Shown piece by piece: positions 26 through 10,270 of a DNA stretch of 10,356 nt (within the stretch, counting starts at the first letter, position 1; every line of letters starts with the position of its first letter). This DNA is from a virus: the UHGV virus genome UHGV-0145483. One strand, 5' to 3'. The translations under genes and the position numbers were made by a program. The notes beneath the pieces were generated by a model. That model saw only the letters and a list, made by a program, of their open reading frames with translations, had not been told where the DNA came from and made no database searches.

Positions 26-562
26 GTGGTGGATGCACTACCTGAGGCAGTAGCGCGTCGTTCGCTGGGATTACCGGTGGAAAAAATCCGCTCCGTATAC
101 CGTGAGAGTGACATCGTACCGGGAGAACAGACAGCCATCAGCATACTGAAGCAGCGCACAAAAAATATTGCGCTTCCACTTCACGTCCACCAGCAACAGC
201 CCCCACCCCAGGAAAAGACGTTAGTAAGCATCGCCGTTGATCCGGAGTCTCCGGCTCAGTACCTCCAGCGCCAGAAACCACAACGGGAAGAGATGCCTGT
301 ATACACGCGCTGGGTAAAAACGCAGAAATGCATGACGTGTGGCAATCAGGCAGATGATCCGCATCACATCATTGGTCATGGACTGGGAGGTATGGGAACA
401 AAGGCTGACGATTTGTTTGTTATTCCGTTGTGCCGTAAATGCCATAACAAACTACATGCCGGAGTAAAAGATTTTGAAGAAAAACACGGCAGTCAGCTGT
501 TGTTGCTGATTCGTTTTTTAATGCACGCGAGAAATTCGGGTGTTCTGAAGTGGAAAGCATAA
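26..562 (+). CDS. nin-region phage protein with C-terminal Zn-ribbon/HNH-like domain (DUF1364/YbcO-like); 5' end ambiguous
   Basis: Frame is open from the left window edge; GTG at 26, internal ATG at 293 with weak SD gggaag. C-terminal ~90 aa carry CxxC...HH..GHG..G.GTK.DD...PLCRKCH, the Zn-binding pattern of small putative nucleases that precede rusA in lambdoid nin regions. Stop TAA 560-562 abuts the rusA ATG. Confidence 0.6.
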   Translation: MVDALPEAVARRSLGLPVEKIRSVYRESDIVPGEQTAISILKQRTKNIALPLHVHQQQPPPQEKTLVSIAVDPESPAQYLQRQKPQREEMPVYTRWVKTQKCMTCGNQADDPHHIIGHGLGGMGTKADDLFVIPLCRKCHNKLHAGVKDFEEKHGSQLLLLIRFLMHARNSGVLKWKA

Positions 563-928
563 ATGACCGAACGCATAGAATTTGTTTTGCCTTACCCGCC
601 GACGGTGAACACTTACTGGCGACGCCGTGGCAGCACATATTTTGTATCAAAAGCCGGGGAGCGTTATCGCCGGGCAGTGGCGCTTATTGTTCGCCAGCAG
701 CGGCTGAAATTAAGCCTGTCCGGAAGGTTGGCAATAAAAATTATTGCAGAACCACCGGATAAGCGCCGCCGTGACCTGGACAATATTCTGAAAGCACCGC
801 TGGATGCGCTTACGCATGCGGGGTTGTTAATGGACGATGAGCAGTTTGATGAAATCAATATTGTACGTGGTCAGCTTGTTCTTGGTGGTCGGCTGGGTGT
901 GAAGATTTACAAAATTGAGAGTGAGTGA
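563..928 (+). CDS. rusA: RusA Holliday-junction resolvase (crossover junction endodeoxyribonuclease)
   Basis: 121 aa; N-terminal LPYPPTVNTYWRRRG and central PDKRRRDLDNILKAPLDAL with catalytic Asp cluster match the RusA family; position immediately upstream of the antiterminator is typical. Confidence 0.85.
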   Translation: MTERIEFVLPYPPTVNTYWRRRGSTYFVSKAGERYRRAVALIVRQQRLKLSLSGRLAIKIIAEPPDKRRRDLDNILKAPLDALTHAGLLMDDEQFDEINIVRGQLVLGGRLGVKIYKIESE

Positions 929-936
929 GCGTAAAT

Positions 937-1464
937 ATGATATATCCGGAAATTACAGGCAAAAGCGGCGAACATTTACGCCTGAACACGCTGGAAGCAG
1001 TCTGGATCCAGGGGAAATTACGGATGTGGGGGCGGTGGTCGTATATCGGTGGGGGTAAATCCGGAAATATGTTTAACCGGTTACTGGTTTCGAAAAAGCT
1101 GACGAAAACAGCAGTTAATGAGGTTTTACGCAGAATGAAGAAATCCGGGCTGGAAAAACCGGAACTTGAGGCATTTTTTCGGGATATGACCAGAGGGAAG
1201 CAGAAGAGCTGGTTGTCACATTGTACAGACACAGAGGCGTTGATTATTGATCGCGTTATCAGTGAGGTGCTTGGGGAATATCCCGGACTAATCAATATTC
1301 TCCGGCAAAGGTACGAAGGACGGGGAATGAGCAAACTGAAAATGGCCGAAAGGTTAAATGCAGATCATCCTGAGTGGACGTTGGTTACGTGCAGACGCCG
1401 AATTGATCAGTGGTTGCGTATGGCTTTTGTTACAGAGAAAAAAATGTTGCAAACTGATCAATAA
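937..1464 (+). CDS. Q: Late-gene antiterminator Q (non-lambda Q family)
   Basis: 175 aa from ATG 937 (SD gagtgag 7 nt upstream; alternative GTG 925 overlaps the rusA stop). Sits between rusA and a short leader ending in an intrinsic terminator, the canonical Q/PR-prime/tR-prime arrangement. Family assignment is by position and size, not by a verified alignment. Confidence 0.7.
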   Translation: MIYPEITGKSGEHLRLNTLEAVWIQGKLRMWGRWSYIGGGKSGNMFNRLLVSKKLTKTAVNEVLRRMKKSGLEKPELEAFFRDMTRGKQKSWLSHCTDTEALIIDRVISEVLGEYPGLINILRQRYEGRGMSKLKMAERLNADHPEWTLVTCRRRIDQWLRMAFVTEKKMLQTDQ

Positions 1465-1536
1465 ACTGCTTCAATCCGTATAAGCTTCGCAAGGCTGTAT
1501 CGCGAGGCGAAATGCAAGTTTTTTTCGCACAAGGAA

Positions 1537-1558
1537 GCCACCGGAAGGTGGTTTTTTT
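1537..1558 (+). terminator. tR-prime-like intrinsic terminator ending a short late leader transcript
   Basis: Stem CCACC/GGTGG (1538-1542 with 1547-1551), GGAA tetraloop, then a 7-T run 1552-1558; lies about 75 nt after the Q stop. Confidence 0.5.
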
Positions 1559-1681
1559 GTGTCCGTAATATACAGCAGCGCAATAAATTCGCTGGTGGTT
1601 ATTAATACCGTTCTTTCAGCTTGCTGGCTTTTTCGACAAGAGTTATTGGTGTGTCACGTTAACCGGAAAAGGGAAAAAGAC

Positions 1682-1879
1682 ATGCTGAAACAGCAGGATA
1701 TGACCGAAACCGCCAGAGTGGTGTTTAATGAATTAAGCGTCACCGAACCGGCGACAGTCGGGGAGATTGCACAGAATACGTACCTTTCACGCGAACGCTG
1801 TCAGTTAATACTGACCCAGCTTGTTATGGCGGGGCTGGCAGACTATCAGTTCGGTTGTTACAGACGCCTTCCGCAGTGA
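1682..1879 (+). CDS. Small hypothetical protein (65 aa), possible winged-helix DNA-binding fold
   Basis: ATG 1682 preceded by aaaagggaaaaag; the longer ORF from 1559 would start inside the terminator T-run. Segment VGEIAQNTYLSRERCQLILTQLVMAGLADY resembles a wHTH recognition helix and wing. Stop overlaps a terminator hairpin. Confidence 0.5.
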   Translation: MLKQQDMTETARVVFNELSVTEPATVGEIAQNTYLSRERCQLILTQLVMAGLADYQFGCYRRLPQ

Positions 1880-1889
1880 AGGCTTTTTT
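1866..1889 (+). terminator. Intrinsic terminator overlapping the stop of the small ORF
   Basis: GCCTTC (1866-1871), 6-nt loop, GAAGGC (1878-1883), then TTTTTT 1884-1889. Confidence 0.5.
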
Positions 1890-1978
1890 ATTTGTGGTAA
1901 ATGGGCGGCTGGTGGGTGTTAGGGGCACTCACCAGCCATCTGCTCATGCGTCCGGATCACAAGCAAACCTCAGGCCCA

Positions 1979-1997
1979 CTGCTTTGCGCAAAAGCAG
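1979..1997. promoter_or_regulatory. Near-perfect palindrome upstream of the methyltransferase gene, candidate operator
   Basis: CTGCTTTGCGCAAAAGCAG is self-complementary apart from a 1-nt offset, centred on GCGC, about 35 bp upstream of ATG 2030. A 12-bp stem hairpin GGCTGGTGGGTG/CACTCACCAGCC lies at about 1908-1938. Confidence 0.3.
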
Positions 1998-2029
1998 AAT
2001 GAGCCTATCAGAGACAGGCTTAATGATCC

Positions 2030-3088
2030 ATGCTTAATACTGTAAAAATATCCAGTTGTGAGTTAATCAACGCCGACTGCCTGGAATTTATCCGGTCGTT
2101 ACCCGAAAATTCTGTTGACCTGATAGTCACGGACCCGCCGTACTTTAAAGTGAAGCCTGAGGGCTGGGATAACCAGTGGAAGGGCGACGATGATTACCTG
2201 AAATGGCTGGACCAGTGTCTGGCGCAGTTCTGGCGGGTGCTGAAACCTGCCGGAAGTCTTTACCTGTTCTGTGGCCATCGCCTGGCATCTGATATCGAAA
2301 TCATGATGCGTGAACGCTTCAGTGTGCTGAACCATATTATCTGGGCGAAGCCGTCCGGACGCTGGAACGGGTGCAACAAGGAAAGCCTGAGGGCGTATTT
2401 CCCCGCCACAGAGCGCATTCTGTTCGCGGAACATTATCAGGGGCCGTATCGCCCGAAAGATGCCGGGTATGAGGCGAAGGGCAGGGCACTGAAACAGCAT
2501 GTGATGGCCCCGCTGATTTCTTACTTTCGTGATGCGCGTGCTGCCCTGGGGATAACGGCAAAACAGATAGTGGATGCCACAGGAAAGAAAAACATGGTGT
2601 CGCACTGGTTCAGTGCCAGCCAGTGGCAGCTACCGGACGAAAGCGATTATCTGAAATTACAGGCGCTGTTTGCCCGGGTGGCAGAAGAGAAGCATCAGCG
2701 GGGTGAACTGGAAAAGCCCCACCACCAGCTGCTGGAGACGTATACTTCACTGAACCGGCAGTATGCGGAACTGCAGAGTGAATATAAGCATCTGCGGCGG
2801 TATTTTGGCGTAACTGCGCAGGTGCCGTACACGGATGTGTGGACGCATAAACCGGTGCAGTACTATCCCGGGAAACATCCGTGCGAAAAACCGGCAGAAA
2901 TGCTGCAGCAGATAATCAGTGCGAGCAGTCGTCCGGGTGACCTGGTTGCAGATTTCTTCATGGGGTCAGGTTCGACAGTCAAAGCAGCGATAGCGCTGGG
3001 ACGTCGTGCAACTGGCGTTGAGCTGGAGACTGAGCGTTTTGAGCAGACGGTCAGGGAAGTTCAGAATTTAGTCAGTCAGAACGGATGA
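2030..3088 (+). CDS. DNA amino-methyltransferase, beta class (N6-adenine or N4-cytosine)
   Basis: 352 aa; catalytic motif IV DPPY (IVTDPPYF) near the N-terminus and AdoMet motif I FxGxG (DFFMGSGST) near the C-terminus, the permuted order of beta-class amino-MTases. No adjacent restriction endonuclease is visible, so it looks orphan. Confidence 0.85.
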   Translation: MLNTVKISSCELINADCLEFIRSLPENSVDLIVTDPPYFKVKPEGWDNQWKGDDDYLKWLDQCLAQFWRVLKPAGSLYLFCGHRLASDIEIMMRERFSVLNHIIWAKPSGRWNGCNKESLRAYFPATERILFAEHYQGPYRPKDAGYEAKGRALKQHVMAPLISYFRDARAALGITAKQIVDATGKKNMVSHWFSASQWQLPDESDYLKLQALFARVAEEKHQRGELEKPHHQLLETYTSLNRQYAELQSEYKHLRRYFGVTAQVPYTDVWTHKPVQYYPGKHPCEKPAEMLQQIISASSRPGDLVADFFMGSGSTVKAAIALGRRATGVELETERFEQTVREVQNLVSQNG

Positions 3089-3128
3089 TATTGCAGGATT
3101 AGTTACGTACCGTTATTATCCTGCGCCC

Positions 3129-3204
3129 GGCCCTTTAGCTCAGTGGTGAGAGCGAGCGACTCATAATCGCCAGGTCGCTGGTTCAAATCCAGCAAGGGCC
3201 ACCA
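3129..3204 (+). tRNA. ileZ: tRNA with CAU anticodon, Ile2 (lysidine)-like
   Basis: Manual cloverleaf: acceptor GGCCCTT/AAGGGCC, D-arm TAGCTCAGTGG...GAGC, anticodon loop CTCATAA, T-loop GGTTCAAATCC, encoded CCA at 3202-3204. Close to E. coli ileX as recalled. Confidence 0.85.
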
Positions 3205-3211
3205 TCACATA

Positions 3212-3288
3212 CCGCCATTAGCTCATCAGGATAGAGCGCCAGCCTTCGAAGCTGGTTGCGCGGGGTTCGAGTCCTCGATGGCGGTCCA
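3212..3288 (+). tRNA. argN: tRNA-Arg, anticodon UCG (reads CGA)
   Basis: Manual fold: acceptor CCGCCAT/ATGGCGG (C1:G72), D-stem GCTC/GAGC, anticodon stem CCAGC/GCTGG with loop CTTCGAA, T-loop TTCGAGT, encoded CCA at 3286-3288. Gene name follows Stx-phage convention and is not verified. Confidence 0.75.
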
Positions 3289-3301
3289 TTATCGGTATTC
3301 T

Positions 3302-3378
3302 GCGTTGTTAGCTCAGCCGGACAGAGCAATTGCCTTCTAAGCAATCGGTCACTGGTTCGACTCCAGTACAACGCGCCA
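3302..3378 (+). tRNA. argO: tRNA-Arg, anticodon UCU (reads AGA/AGG)
   Basis: Manual fold: acceptor GCGTTGT/ACAACGC, D-stem GCTC/GAGC, anticodon stem ATTGC/GCAAT with loop CTTCTAA, T-loop TTCGACT, encoded CCA at 3376-3378. Confidence 0.8.
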
Positions 3379-3443
3379 CACTTATTTTTTTCTGGCTTGC
3401 TTCGGCGGGCCTTTTAGTTGCTGAAAAAGAAAACACCAGGTGG

Positions 3444-3476
3444 TTAGCAGGGTATCCGTTACCCTGCTAAATTTTT
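3444..3476 (+). terminator. Intrinsic terminator downstream of the tRNA cluster
   Basis: Perfect 11-bp stem TTAGCAGGGTA/TACCCTGCTAA (3444-3454 with 3460-3470), 5-nt loop, then TTTTT 3472-3476. Confidence 0.55.
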
Positions 3477-3691
3477 AAATACCTCACAATTCAGCAAGTT
3501 GATGATTGTCTGGCTGTCAGGGATTTTGTTAAAAAAATCCTGCATGGTGAATCCCCCTGAGCGGAGGGGCGACTGGTGACGGTATAATCTCTGATTATCA
3601 AAACGAGAATGACGCGGGTTTAGTGGCACCGGGCTGAACTCACCGGGAGGCACCCGGCACCATGTTCATGGTGATACAGAAATGCGGCTTC

Positions 3692-3716
3692 AGCCCCTCT
3701 CCGGAGGGGCTTTCTT
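3692..3716 (+). terminator. Intrinsic terminator, + strand
   Basis: 8-bp stem AGCCCCTC/GAGGGGCT with TCCG loop, followed by TTCTT. Confidence 0.45.
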
Positions 3717-3722
3717 ATGGAC

Positions 3723-3750
3723 AAAAAAGCCCGCGCTGGGAGACGCGGGC
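3723..3750 (-). terminator. Intrinsic terminator, - strand, back-to-back with the + strand one
   Basis: 7-bp stem GCCCGCG/CGCGGGC (3729-3735 with 3744-3750), 8-nt loop; A6 at 3723-3728 on + gives a U-run after the hairpin on the - strand. Confidence 0.4.
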
Positions 3751-3944
3751 GGCAAGGAATAAACAATAAAACGTGAAGTAATATTTCAGCTGGCGAATAA
3801 TACCCCATAGTAATCACTCTGCGCAACTGCGCGGCCTTTTTCGTATTGCGGGCTGTAGTCTCCCTTCTGCCATTGTCCTGTAACTTCCGGACTTCAGCCC
3901 GTTCCCTCATCTGACTCACAACATTATCCCGACCGGGAGGATTC

Positions 3945-5927
3945 ATGACATTTAAACACTACGATGTGGTCAGGGCGGCGTCGCCGTCAGACCTTGCGGA
4001 GCGACTGACACAAAAACTGAAGGAGGGGTGGCAGCCATTTGGCAGCCCTGTCGCCATCACGCCTTATACCCTGATGCAGGCCATTGCGGCGGAAGGTGAT
4101 GTCACCACACCGGTGGTGGTGCAACCGTCGGGTGATGGTGGCGCTGTTATCAGCACCACCAGCGAACCGGAATATTACTTTGTCATTGCGCTGGCCGGGC
4201 AGTCCAACTCGATGTCTTTTGGCGAGGGGCTGCCGCTGCCGGAGACATATGACCGTCCGGACCCGCGTATTAAACAGCTGGCGCGTCGCAGTACGGTGAC
4301 GCCGGGTGGTGCCGCCTGTAAATATAACGACATCATTCCGGCAGACCACTGTCTGCATGATGTGCAGGATATGAGTAACCTGAATCATCCTCATGCAGAC
4401 CTGAGTAAGGGACAGTACGGTTGTGTGGGGCATGCTCTGCATGTTGCCAAAAAGCTGCTGCCGTTTATGCCTGCGAATGCGGGTATCCTTCTTGTTCCAT
4501 GTGGCCGTGGCGATTCGGGATTTACTGCGGGGGCCGAGGGGGCGTTTAACGAAGCGTCGGGAGCGACCGCAGGCTCGTCCCTGTGGGGGGCGGATAAACC
4601 GCTGTATCATGACCTGGTCAGCAGAACCCGTGCGGCCCTGAAGAAAAATCCGAAGAACGTGCTGTTATCAGTGATCTGGATGCAGGGAGAAAAAGATGTC
4701 AGTTCGGGGAGACATGCAGAACACAATGCGCTTTTCCTTGCCATGGTAAATCAGTTCCGTACGGAACTGGCAGATGTGGCAGAGCAGTGTACTGGCGGGA
4801 CAACGGCCAGCGTCCCGTGGATTTGCGGTGATACCACGTACTACTGGAAGGAAAGGTATGCAGCGCCGTATGAGGCGGTTTACGGTGGGTATAAAGGCAA
4901 AGCTGCGCAGAATATTCACTTTGTGCCGTTGATGACGGATGAGCATGGTGCGAATGTGCCGACAAACGAGCCGTCAGAAGATCCGGACATTATCACGGCG
5001 GGATACTATGGTGCCGCGTCACGCAGTAATGGTAACTGGACGACAGCCGATCGTAAAACGCACTTCAGCTCCTGGGCGCGAAGAGGCATTGTTTCAGATC
5101 GGCTGGCAGGAGAGATACTGGTGCGAGCCGGGCGTTTGCTGCCGTTCCTGAGCGGGCAGTCTGCACCGCTGGCGACCACGCCAGCCTCCACGGGGGATGC
5201 ACAGTCTGGCTCTGCGGGTCAGACGCAACAGCAGGGTGCAGGTACTTCTGCAGGCGGTCATACTGAAGCCGTAACAAGAATGGTGGCCGGATATGATGCG
5301 AACAGTGGCAGTGGTGTATGGACAGAGCAGCAGTGGAATGCGTCCGGTGGTAAAGGCACTGTGACGGATGACAGTGGCAGGAAGGCGCTGCGACTGGAAA
5401 AACAGCCGGGTAAACTGACCTCCTGGAAGATGTTCCGTACTGTTGCGGTGGAGGAGGCAAAAAATCTTCTCAGCAAGGGGGGTGAAATTGCCGTACGGTT
5501 CAAAATTCCGGATGGAAGCGAACTGGTGAACGGACAGTTTGTCTTTGGTCTCTACTGGCCGGTGTCGCAGTGGGCGTCAGGCGCGGCAGCAAACAGTATG
5601 CTGGCATCATTCTTCCTTCAGACGGATGCATCAAATCTGAATCTTATGCACCACAAGGGCACGTCGAATGCACAACTGGGTACATTTGGTGCGTTTGACC
5701 ATAACTGGCATACGGTTGTTTTCCGCTTTGCGGGAAATAACAGCGAAAGAGTCGTTCCGGTGATTGATGGTACAGAGCAGACGGCGTTTGACCTTGTGAT
5801 GTGGACAAATGATGGCTTTACAGCAGATACGCTGACGCTGACAGATATCACGGGGGCAAAAGCGACGTATCCGGTACTGCTTGATACGGTCACAGTCAAA
5901 GTTAACGAAAGCCGGGCATCATCATAA
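3945..5927 (+). CDS. nanS-p: Prophage sialate O-acetylesterase NanS-p family (DUF1737 N-domain, SGNH esterase, C-terminal beta-rich domain)
   Basis: 660 aa; SD gggagg 4 nt before the ATG. N-terminal MTFKHYDVVRA...EGWQPFGSPV matches the DUF1737-type domain of phage NanS-p proteins; SGNH block I FVIALAGQSNSMSFGEG carries the catalytic Ser; a Ser/Gly/Thr/Gln-rich linker (about aa 400-440) precedes the C-terminal domain. Position matches the gene that follows stx in Stx phages. Confidence 0.85.
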   Translation: MTFKHYDVVRAASPSDLAERLTQKLKEGWQPFGSPVAITPYTLMQAIAAEGDVTTPVVVQPSGDGGAVISTTSEPEYYFVIALAGQSNSMSFGEGLPLPETYDRPDPRIKQLARRSTVTPGGAACKYNDIIPADHCLHDVQDMSNLNHPHADLSKGQYGCVGHALHVAKKLLPFMPANAGILLVPCGRGDSGFTAGAEGAFNEASGATAGSSLWGADKPLYHDLVSRTRAALKKNPKNVLLSVIWMQGEKDVSSGRHAEHNALFLAMVNQFRTELADVAEQCTGGTTASVPWICGDTTYYWKERYAAPYEAVYGGYKGKAAQNIHFVPLMTDEHGANVPTNEPSEDPDIITAGYYGAASRSNGNWTTADRKTHFSSWARRGIVSDRLAGEILVRAGRLLPFLSGQSAPLATTPASTGDAQSGSAGQTQQQGAGTSAGGHTEAVTRMVAGYDANSGSGVWTEQQWNASGGKGTVTDDSGRKALRLEKQPGKLTSWKMFRTVAVEEAKNLLSKGGEIAVRFKIPDGSELVNGQFVFGLYWPVSQWASGAAANSMLASFFLQTDASNLNLMHHKGTSNAQLGTFGAFDHNWHTVVFRFAGNNSERVVPVIDGTEQTAFDLVMWTNDGFTADTLTLTDITGAKATYPVLLDTVTVKVNESRASS

Positions 5928-8808: not shown

Positions 8809-9009
8809 TCATTTCTCGTTATTTTTCATGCTGGCCGGGCGCAGATGCGTTGCATCTGTTGCCAGCCTTCTCCTGCAGGCTTCAATAACCCACGCTGAAA
8901 AGTTACCGGACCCTTTATGCTCAAGGGCGATGTTGATTTGTTCAATTATGTGATTGGGGAAACGGATATTGCGGGTTGTGGTTCTGCGGGTCCGGTTTTT
9001 CGATGACAT
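8809..9009 (-). CDS. YlcI/YnfO-like small protein (DUF3950-type), possible ribbon-helix-helix DNA binder
   Basis: Minus-strand ATG at 9007-9009 with SD aagga 7 nt upstream; 66 aa MSSKNRTRRTTTRNIRFPNHIIEQINIALEHKGSGNFSAWVIEACRRRL has a basic N-tail, a beta-strand and two helices typical of RHH-like proteins. A small minus-strand gene of this family sits between Rz and the terminase in DLP12-type prophages (from memory). Confidence 0.5.
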   Translation of the reverse strand: MSSKNRTRRTTTRNIRFPNHIIEQINIALEHKGSGNFSAWVIEACRRRLATDATHLRPASMKNNEK

Positions 9010-9050
9010 ATTTATTTCCTTTACTGATTGCCATATGACGGGGATTTTAC

Positions 9051-9416
9051 ATGGCTCAGCTTCGTACACTCCAGAGCAGAATCAAAACACTGAATACCCG
9101 ACGGGTGAATATTCTGAAGGGGGAGCAGCGTCGTGTCAGTGGCAGTGCACGTGTTTCCCTCAAGCGTCATATCTGGCTGAGGGACGCCGGGCAGTGCTGT
9201 ATCTGTGGTCGTGTGGTTGACCTCTGTGACAGTGAACTCGATCACCGAATTGCACTTCAGTTCGGTGGTGGTAATGAGGAGACGAATCTCTGGACGCTCT
9301 GTACCGAATGCCATCGACAAAAGTCTGCTCGTGAAGCGGCGGGTGGTATGCCGGACCCGACGCTGCCGGAGGTGTCCGGAGGTAGTGGCAGAGCGGACGA
9401 CATCATCGGACTGTAA
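9051..9416 (+). CDS. HNH endonuclease (phage packaging-associated)
   Basis: 121 aa; motifs CCICGR...DLCDSELDHRIALQFGG...NLWTLCTECHRQK give two Cys pairs plus HN...H; sits directly upstream of the terminase genes as in HK97-like packaging modules. Confidence 0.8.
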   Translation: MAQLRTLQSRIKTLNTRRVNILKGEQRRVSGSARVSLKRHIWLRDAGQCCICGRVVDLCDSELDHRIALQFGGGNEETNLWTLCTECHRQKSAREAAGGMPDPTLPEVSGGSGRADDIIGL

Positions 9417-9706: not shown

Positions 9707-10270
9707 GTGCTGACAACACAAAAACGAAAATTTGCGCTGGCGCTCATGTCCGGGAAAAACAAAACAGCGTCAGCCATTGCCGCCGGTTATTCGGCGAAGA
9801 CCGCCAGGGTTAAAGGCTCACAGCTGGCAAAAGATCCGGAGGTGCTCGCGTTTATAGCCCGTAAACAGTGCGAAACGGTGGAGGTGGATGAGGTTCCTGT
9901 TTACCGGCAGAAAAAATCAGAGCAGGAGGATAAACCCCGTCGCCGTGAGGCGGCTGCAATACCACAGCCGGACGAAAACAATCCGGAGATGCCACCGTCC
10001 GCGGTGATGTCTCCTGGTATTGAATATATGGAGGATGGTCTTCCCGATCCGGTGAAAGCCATGGGGCGGATCCTGGTGGAAAACCTCTGCATTGATCCGA
10101 AACTGGCACTGGATGCGGCCTGGCGTCTGGCGCAGTTCACGCACCATAAAAAAGGGGATACCGGGAAAAAATCGGCAAAAGGTGATGCCGCGAAAAAAGC
10201 GGCTAACCGTTTTGCGGTGCCACCGCCACCCCGACTGGTGGTGAATAACGATAATGAGGGCAACGGATGA
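9707..10270 (+). CDS. Terminase small subunit
   Basis: 187 aa from GTG 9707 (SD gggaggagg; alternative ATG 9746); N-terminal KRKFALALMSGKNKTASAIAAGYSAKTARVKGSQLAKDPEV is the HTH signature of small terminase subunits; stop overlaps the next start (ATGA). Confidence 0.7.
   Translation: MLTTQKRKFALALMSGKNKTASAIAAGYSAKTARVKGSQLAKDPEVLAFIARKQCETVEVDEVPVYRQKKSEQEDKPRRREAAAIPQPDENNPEMPPSAVMSPGIEYMEDGLPDPVKAMGRILVENLCIDPKLALDAAWRLAQFTHHKKGDTGKKSAKGDAAKKAANRFAVPPPPRLVVNNDNEGNG

Follow-up and report, generated by a model that had tools for sequence, protein, structure and literature searches.

A conserved structured RNA leader precedes the gene for an M.EcoGII-type adenine methyltransferase in a lambdoid prophage

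The virus genome UHGV-0145483 is represented here by a stretch of 10,356 nucleotides (the window), which is the start of the late operon, or late region, of a lambdoid Escherichia coli prophage and carries an orphan DNA methyltransferase gene at 2030–3088 on the plus strand. An initial annotation of this DNA described a hairpin and a palindrome ahead of the gene, and proposed the palindrome as the operator of a small DNA-binding protein encoded further upstream. The hairpin and the palindrome are helices of a conserved, structured RNA leader of 128 nt (1902–2029), and this leader belongs to the methyltransferase gene rather than to the small open reading frame (ORF). The whole arrangement is probably one in which a toxic M.EcoGII-type methylase is transcribed in dependence on the late antiterminator Q and its translation is limited by the cis-acting leader. 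The methylase and the elements upstream of it are arranged as follows.

1682–1879 (+): gene for a 65-residue winged-helix protein, phrog_331, with the Shine–Dalgarno (SD)-like sequence AAGGGA upstream
1866–1889 (+): the second of two intrinsic terminators, overlapping the stop codon of the small ORF and forming the 5′ edge of the methylase module
1902–2029 (+): structured 5′ leader of the methylase mRNA, a candidate cis-regulatory RNA (covariance model R1)
2030–3088 (+): orphan beta-class N6-adenine DNA (and RNA) methyltransferase of the M.EcoGII family (PF01555 and identity to M.EcoGII)

Conservation and distribution of the leader

The spacer of 150 nt between the small ORF and the methylase gene was first aligned among SfV, mEp460, Stx2c phages, phiP27, Citrobacter phiNP, a Klebsiella phage and Eeyore, and in this alignment it is conserved above both flanking genes. 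The later samples comprised one locus per species from 48 genomes (Enterobacterales and beyond) and 80 viral contigs. Among 1,015 divergent pairs, the mean identity is 86% for the leader, 72% for the methylase coding sequence (CDS), 47% for its third codon positions and 77% for the protein, and the leader is the more conserved of the two in 1,010 of these pairs. The covariance model matches the window at 1902–2035 with 120.8 bits and yields exactly one strong match per locus, always on the plus strand and always ending at the methylase start, in 51 loci and then in 80 of 80 more (131 altogether). This conservation shows that the leader exists as an element of its own. The invariant 18-mer GGGCGGCTGGTGGGTGTT is followed by a methylase 127–130 nt downstream in 114 of the 118 full-length viral instances; in the remaining four, replacement has left no more than the first ~45 nt of the leader.

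In PhiR5_1 (locus L003, ~2830–2870) and phiSTEC1575-Stx2k (locus L004, ~2825–2870), other cargo replaces the methylase and the first 20–45 nt of the leader are left, which places recombination breakpoints inside the leader. Ahead of the leader, every locus has a terminator hairpin, whether or not the small ORF is present; the hairpin varies in sequence while its pairing is kept by compensation. The mobile unit is thus the terminator, the leader and the methylase together. A decaying copy is found next to icd in Enterobacter sp. Bisph1 (locus L058, 2368–2500), where the methylase start has become AAG and 93 residues match; the leader survives there and carries the one break seen in helix P0 (GCCAA).

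Across 5,426 complete E. coli genomes, the leader occurs without annotation at 3,767 places, spread over 2,634 of the genomes. No family of Rfam 15 matched 1880–2030 at E-values up to 1 when the whole window was searched, the best match to 1850–2060 (211 nt) scored 16.6 bits against a gathering score of 36, and no description of the leader was found in the published papers searched. The phage small RNAs HnrS and StxS, known from the literature, are short terminated transcripts at other positions and do not correspond to it.

Two coding explanations of the conservation were rejected. An ORF for 60 residues (1855–2037) is ruled out by single-base insertions and deletions between relatives. A short ORF from the ATG at 1901 (MGGWWV...) overlaps the invariant 5′ arm of P0/P1, and its peptide is not kept: a stop follows after 7 codons in most relatives, and in loci L049 and L050, both of Rosenbergiella, the frame is shifted. 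In principle, a two-layer G-quadruplex could form in this G-rich stretch, GGGCGGCUGGUGGG (1901–1924 and relatives).

Fold of the leader

The proposed fold comprises the following helices, all on the plus strand.

P0, 1902–1906 with 1974–1978: closes a three-way junction spanning 1902–1978
P1, 1907–1918 with 1926–1937: the hairpin of the initial annotation, recovered in a repeat scan
P2, 1939–1943 with 1963–1967: a strongly covarying helix
P3, 1979–1985 with 1991–1997: the palindrome, with arms CTGCTTT and AAAGCAG around GCGCA and an invariant core GCTTT..AAAGC
P5, 2002–2006 with 2016–2020: a hairpin before the ATG, AGCCT with AGGCT (stem 2002–2020 in the terminator and hairpin scan)
P6, 1954–1959 with 2024–2029: a possible pseudoknot between GGATCA in the P2 loop and TGATCC

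The hairpin, described earlier as one of 12 bp, is present, with arms of 12 nt that are 92% complementary. The palindrome is likewise present, with arms of 7 nt that are 100% complementary and 5 nt apart; its distance from the methylase ATG had been given as 35 bp and is 32 nt. An inverted repeat of 7 bp is only mildly unlikely by chance in a spacer of 150 nt, and it is conservation across genera, not chance odds, that marks the palindrome as real.

In the model-based alignment, 95% of cells pair, against 30–47% after the partners are shifted by 1–3 columns, and the covariation score (0.075, against 0.046 in shuffles) was reached in 0 of 500 shuffles. The central pair of P2 occurs as CG (25), AU (11), UA (8) and UG (4) and is never unpaired; a divergent clade (L039/L261) has a P2 stem of another sequence, UUGCCCG/CGGGCAA. 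P0 shows one double change, from G-C to A-U, in locus L018. In P1, the right arm varies while keeping G-C or G.U pairs and the left arm is invariant and rich in G and U. The core of P3 never varies, so that its pairing is neither supported nor refuted by the alignment. P0 to P3 were predicted by RNAalifold without being supplied, and the minimum free energy z-scores against shuffled sequences are −5.06 and −4.5 for the plus strand and −2.98 and −3.6 for the minus strand. A further candidate helix, GCUCAU (1942–1947) with AUGAGC (1999–2004), was set aside, as the variants GCCCA and GCCUA give C.A mismatches and leave it less supported than the alternatives.

The small winged-helix protein

The small ORF at 1682–1879, which the initial annotation described as winged-helix-like, proves to be a real gene. 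Among 77 distinct homologous CDS, differences fall mainly at third codon positions (67,836, against 28,814 and 24,298 at the other two), and an SD-like core is present in 35 of 35 homologues. The product matches phrog_331 (E-value of 1.4e-37), a family of unknown function; its sole Pfam match, to TrmB, scores 18 bits, below the cut-off of 25.6, and there is no NCBIfam match. The AlphaFold2 model of the 65-residue protein is a winged helix of the order H1-b-H2-H3-b-hairpin with a mean pLDDT of 90.3. The best Foldseek matches are winged-helix domains of the IclR and MarR types (TM-score of 0.83 and r.m.s.d. of 1.5 with the IclR-type chain 2g7u), and the dimerisation winged helix of O-methyltransferases and SelB are also matched. 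Counted from the sequence, the protein has two cysteines (C40 and C59) and a net charge of about −1.

Of the 42 species-level leader loci, 29 have the small ORF immediately ahead of the methylase, at a fixed spacing of ~150 nt, and the protein variants among loci are 50–100% identical. The other 13 loci, like phage Eeyore, lack the small ORF and have unrelated genes upstream; the ORF is therefore dispensable. It is intact in PhiR5_1 and phiSTEC1575-Stx2k, where the methylase has been replaced. The small protein is a frequent but dispensable neighbour, at most an accessory factor, and not the obligatory partner of the palindrome. At two loci (L021 and L025, 2058–2297 in both; Kosakonia sacchari and a contig labelled Vagococcus), an ORF for 79 residues with three CxxC motifs occupies the usual place of the winged-helix ORF, just before the terminator and leader, and is reminiscent of the zinc-finger protein Com of phage Mu.

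These distributions bear on the pairing of controller and operator put forward in the initial annotation, in which the 65-residue protein binds the palindrome at 1979–1997 as duplex DNA and controls a methylase promoter, as a C protein does with its operator. The confidently predicted fold, shared with IclR and MarR regulators, and the regular placement of the gene ahead of the methylase are in its favour, as is the palindrome itself, whose core is invariant and whose centre stays self-complementary in the divergent clade. Self-complementarity after a two-base change is not required of an RNA hairpin loop and thus favours a site on duplex DNA. The fully symmetric AGCGCT, moreover, is found in 14 loci with the small ORF and in 1 without, in a count that ignores relatedness. 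However, the leader and its palindrome persist unchanged in the loci without the small ORF, the core of the palindrome does not differ between variants of the small protein or when there is none, and the ORF survives where the methylase does not. In addition, a simple promoter scan of 1300–3500 found no sigma-70-like site for such an operator to regulate, the small protein is slightly acidic, and the other 110 conserved nucleotides and the covariation of P2 are left unexplained. Upstream of the small ORF (1440–1681) there is no inverted repeat of at least 7 nt; the only three found lie downstream of its coding body. A dedicated pair of this kind is therefore quite improbable.

Any dimeric protein that binds the palindrome must occur wherever the methylase does, and the methylase itself, a dimer, is one candidate. 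Several Type II methylases repress their own genes, M.SsoII, M.EcoRII and M.MspI among them. Here, the palindrome would be an autoregulatory site at which the dimeric enzyme acts, either in the DNA or in its own transcript. No matter which genes stand upstream, the palindrome is found with the methylase, and its centre remains self-complementary; M.EcoGII and its reconstructed ancestors elute as dimers, and the enzyme acts on DNA and RNA (PMC11551740). Against this, M.EcoGII is reported to lack sequence preference (PMC5778455), the separate N-terminal helix–turn–helix (HTH) domain of self-repressing methylases is missing from this enzyme, the scan detected no promoter for it to act on, and its binding to the palindrome is hypothetical. 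Autoregulation of this kind is highly improbable, and the reading of the palindrome as helix P3 of an RNA leader is preferred.

The methyltransferase

The methyltransferase has 352 residues and matches PF01555 (N6_N4_Mtase) over residues 29–340 (E-value of 7.9e-44, 150.7 bits against a cut-off of 26.7). A DPPY motif at residues 35–38 (2132–2143) lies N-terminal to FMGSG at residues 310–314 (2957–2971), which is the motif order of the beta class, and the nearest solved structures are beta-class methyltransferases. No restriction endonuclease gene is found in the window or in annotated relatives, where the neighbours are the Q-like protein, the small ORF, three tRNAs and an esterase. The description of the gene in the initial annotation as an orphan beta-class amino-methyltransferase of a phage late operon thus holds.

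The protein is identical to the methylase of phage 1720a-02 at 345 of 352 positions (98%) and to M.EcoGII at 325 of 349 (~93%) over the full length. The second value is a lower bound, as the M.EcoGII reference was taken from the SUPREM supplement (PMC11551740) and contains machine-reading errors; some of the 24 differing residues, which lie mostly within residues 180–250, are errors of this kind. The enzyme of 1720a-02 has been called very similar to M.EcoGII, which, like its close relative M.EcoGI, methylates adenine whatever the surrounding sequence; both of these enzymes are silent in lysogens, and their expression slows growth (PMC5778455). The reconstructed ancestors of the M.EcoGII clade all methylate DNA and RNA, non-site-specific RNA methylation has been demonstrated for Anc291 and SUPREM, and M.EcoGII and the reconstructed ancestors elute as dimers (PMC11551740).

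By homology, the window enzyme is predicted to be a non-specific N6-adenine methylase that is silent in lysogens. Its silence is suggested by the two upstream terminators and the lack of a promoter-like site, and its ~93% identity to M.EcoGII leads to the expectation of context-free methylation: the product should be N6-methyladenine (m6A) at adenines in any context, without a target motif. The statement of the initial annotation that the methylated base and target cannot be read from the sequence is strictly true, and homology to M.EcoGII nevertheless points to context-free m6A. The anti-restriction role suggested there fits the published account of the enzyme family (PMC5778455). The methylase is an enzyme of an already known type, marketed as a reagent, and an ordinary copy of a known phage enzyme; enzymatically, the window copy adds nothing new.

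Gene order and transcription

The other genes and elements of the window are the following.

26–562 (+): DUF968/HNH protein (Pfam)
563–928 (+): RusA (Pfam)
925–1464 (+): Q-like late antiterminator gene, DUF1133 / Phage_antitermQ (PF06576, E-value of 8.5e-99; PF06530, 32.9 bits against a cut-off of 26; named DUF1133 family protein in RefSeq relatives)
1538–1558 (+): first intrinsic-terminator-like hairpin after Q, resembling tR′, CCACCGGAAGGTGG followed by TTTTTTT, read directly from the sequence
3129–3378 (+): three tRNA genes of the same late transcript, with anticodon CAT (tRNA-Ile in annotated relatives), Arg-TCG and Arg-TCT (ARAGORN, the Rfam tRNA family and RefSeq relatives)
3945–5927: DUF1737/SASA/DUF6645 esterase (Pfam)
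To the right of the esterase: holin, lysozyme, Rz, HNH and small terminase genes (ORF list and annotated relatives)

The hairpin at 1538–1558 corresponds to a site in phage SfV, after Q, that is annotated as a rho-independent terminator, and homology to phages with other Q genes starts just after it. Within the 95 nt after the Q-like gene (1465–1560), there are two elements made of a hairpin and a T run, ending at ~1526 and ~1558. The second terminator, at 1866–1889, which the initial annotation rightly gave to the small ORF, has in the terminator scan a stem at 1866–1883, followed by TTTTTT, and relatives show compensatory changes in the stem. With these two terminators ahead and no detectable promoter of its own, the methylase should, judging from gene order, be transcribed only by Q-modified polymerase after induction. 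Hexamers picked by eye near the palindrome were rejected as a methylase promoter, being poor and not conserved (TATCAG alternates with TACCAG).

The DNA of 1400–3450 is present at a coverage of at least 80% in 1,737 of the 5,426 complete E. coli genomes and also in 294 phage records, mostly of Stx2 phages, in which the methylase and tRNAs sit just upstream of stx. There are no stx genes after the tRNA trio in the window (3129–3945), and the esterase at 3945 is the next gene. A full-length match to the small RNA STnc100 (Rfam RF02076) lies between the tRNAs and the esterase gene, at 3513–3722 (+), with 158.8 bits against a gathering score of 47. Further to the right, an ORF for 86 residues on the minus strand (8809–9069) stands between the lysis genes and the ORF at 9051–9416 (+), in which HNH-like motifs were read by eye; the ORF at 9707–10270 (+) appears to be the small terminase subunit gene annotated in a close relative.

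The methylase start region

Conservation of the leader is unbroken up to the ATG, and 46 of 50 methylase homologues lack an SD core of at least 3 nt at −16 to −5, as does the window copy. The columns of P5 and P6 pair in 93.5% of cells, and together the two helices could cover all 12 nt before the ATG; both P6 partners, GGUCA and UGAUC, are missing together in the L039/L261 clade. From this arrangement, we infer that the leader acts in cis and most likely controls the translation of the methylase or the fate of its mRNA. Except in two of the 51 aligned leaders, those of the divergent L039 and of the pseudogene L058, a Dam site (GATC) stands 2–5 nt ahead of the methylase start codon; the 3′ strand of the putative P6 (2024–2029) falls at the same place, which may account for the site.

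A protein could also act on this RNA. In a circuit like com-mom built from unrelated parts, the leader would lock the methylase start and the winged-helix protein, or another late protein, would bind the leader RNA and switch translation on. The layout is that of Mu com-mom and of com-hin1523, with a small gene directly upstream of a harmful adenine-modifying enzyme and, plausibly here, RNA structure at its start (PMC3299994, PMC6483171). The lack of an SD sequence in a gene whose leader reaches the ATG, and the ability of P5 and P6 to sequester the nucleotides before it, are in keeping with such a lock; RNA binding is known for some winged-helix domains, the fold matches include SelB, and L021 and L025 carry the three-CxxC protein in the place of the winged-helix ORF. 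However, about one-third of the species-level leader loci have no small ORF of either kind, the small protein, with only two cysteines, is no zinc finger, only modest occlusion of the start site is predicted and RNA binding by the small protein is hypothetical. Such a circuit is unlikely.

Proposed control of the methylase

A leader that acts in cis on an enzyme of the M.EcoGII type would fit a two-layered control. The enzyme would methylate adenines in any context, and progeny phage DNA would then resist many restriction systems at once. As the enzyme is harmful to the host, it must stay off in the lysogen. In the first layer, transcription would come only from Q-modified polymerase reading through the two terminators after induction; in the second, the RNA leader would limit or time the translation of the harmful enzyme. 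Tight control has a precedent in phage Mu, whose small protein Com opens mom to translation; in Mu-like prophages, genes resembling com stand ahead of non-specific adenine methylases of the alpha class (PMC3299994, PMC6483171).

Several points weigh against this account. Dependence on Q is read from gene order alone, and a simple promoter scan could miss a weak or activator-dependent promoter. The specificity of the window allele is taken from homology. Occlusion of the start region is modest, with a mean unpaired probability of 0.35, against 0.47 for the shuffled leader and 0.40 for the small ORF, and is not counted as strong evidence. Most leader columns are invariant and little covariation is seen outside P2; double changes of any kind occur in five pairs, and for four of these in 1–3 sequences only. 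The structure was derived from the same sequences, and the alignment was fitted to it. In the divergent clade, the palindrome centre changes from GCGC to GTGCAC and stays self-complementary, which is as compatible with a site on duplex DNA as with an RNA hairpin. Nor does the alignment single out one fold: an alternative helix, A:B (1902–1906 with 1942–1946), is paired in 99.6% of cells, fits no less well than P0 and is retained as a candidate second fold.

More tentatively, the leader may represent a class of cis-regulatory RNA that is so far undescribed, occurs in roughly half of all complete E. coli genomes and in prophages across the Enterobacterales, and gates the translation of a promiscuous and harmful methylase. 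It might switch between folds (A:B against P0/P2), and the winged-helix protein might serve as an RNA-binding co-factor, which would make the system a functional analogue of Mu com-mom assembled from unrelated parts.

The regulatory reading of the locus is changed by these observations: the hairpin and palindrome serve as helices of the methylase leader rather than as an operator of the adjacent small protein. Constraint is stronger on the leader than on the gene behind it, a gene that has no ribosome-binding sequence and whose product is harmful to the host. If the leader controls translation, it would explain how lambdoid phages, including Stx2 phages, silence a context-free adenine methylase and then dose it in lytic growth, and it would provide a second, independent example of the logic of Mu mom.

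Comparison with known systems

C proteins, which are dimers of the Xre HTH type, bind operators ahead of their own genes and set the timing of endonuclease expression. The locus resembles C proteins and their C-boxes in having a small protein of a DNA-binding type beside a methylase gene, with an inverted repeat nearby; it differs in that the protein is a winged helix rather than an Xre-type HTH and in that there is no endonuclease.

With M.EcoGII (PMC5778455), the window enzyme shares the beta-class motif order, the orphan state and the location in the late region of a lambdoid prophage, whereas its length is 352 residues against 349. The surrounding genes follow the scheme of lambdoid Q antitermination at pR′/tR′, as in Stx phages (PMC7547250): a Q-family gene is followed by a terminator and then by late genes, and the methylase and tRNAs occupy the position that lies upstream of stx in Stx2 phages. 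However, Q is here of the DUF1133 type, neither its late promoter (pR′) nor its utilisation site was located, and there are no stx genes.

The systems closest in layout are Mu com-mom and com-Hin1523/Hia5 (PMC3299994, PMC6483171), in which a small gene likewise lies directly upstream of the gene for a late anti-restriction enzyme that modifies adenines, has a broad spectrum and harms the host, and in which that gene starts in RNA structure, as it plausibly does here. The parts differ throughout. Com of Mu is a four-cysteine zinc finger, whereas its counterpart here has a winged-helix fold and two cysteines, is missing from about one-third of the species-level leader loci and is only conjectured to bind or activate. 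Hin1523/Hia5 of Mu-like prophages belongs to the alpha class, whereas the methylase here belongs to the beta class; and in place of the single stem-loop of mom, the methylase is preceded by a leader of 128 nt with a three-way junction.

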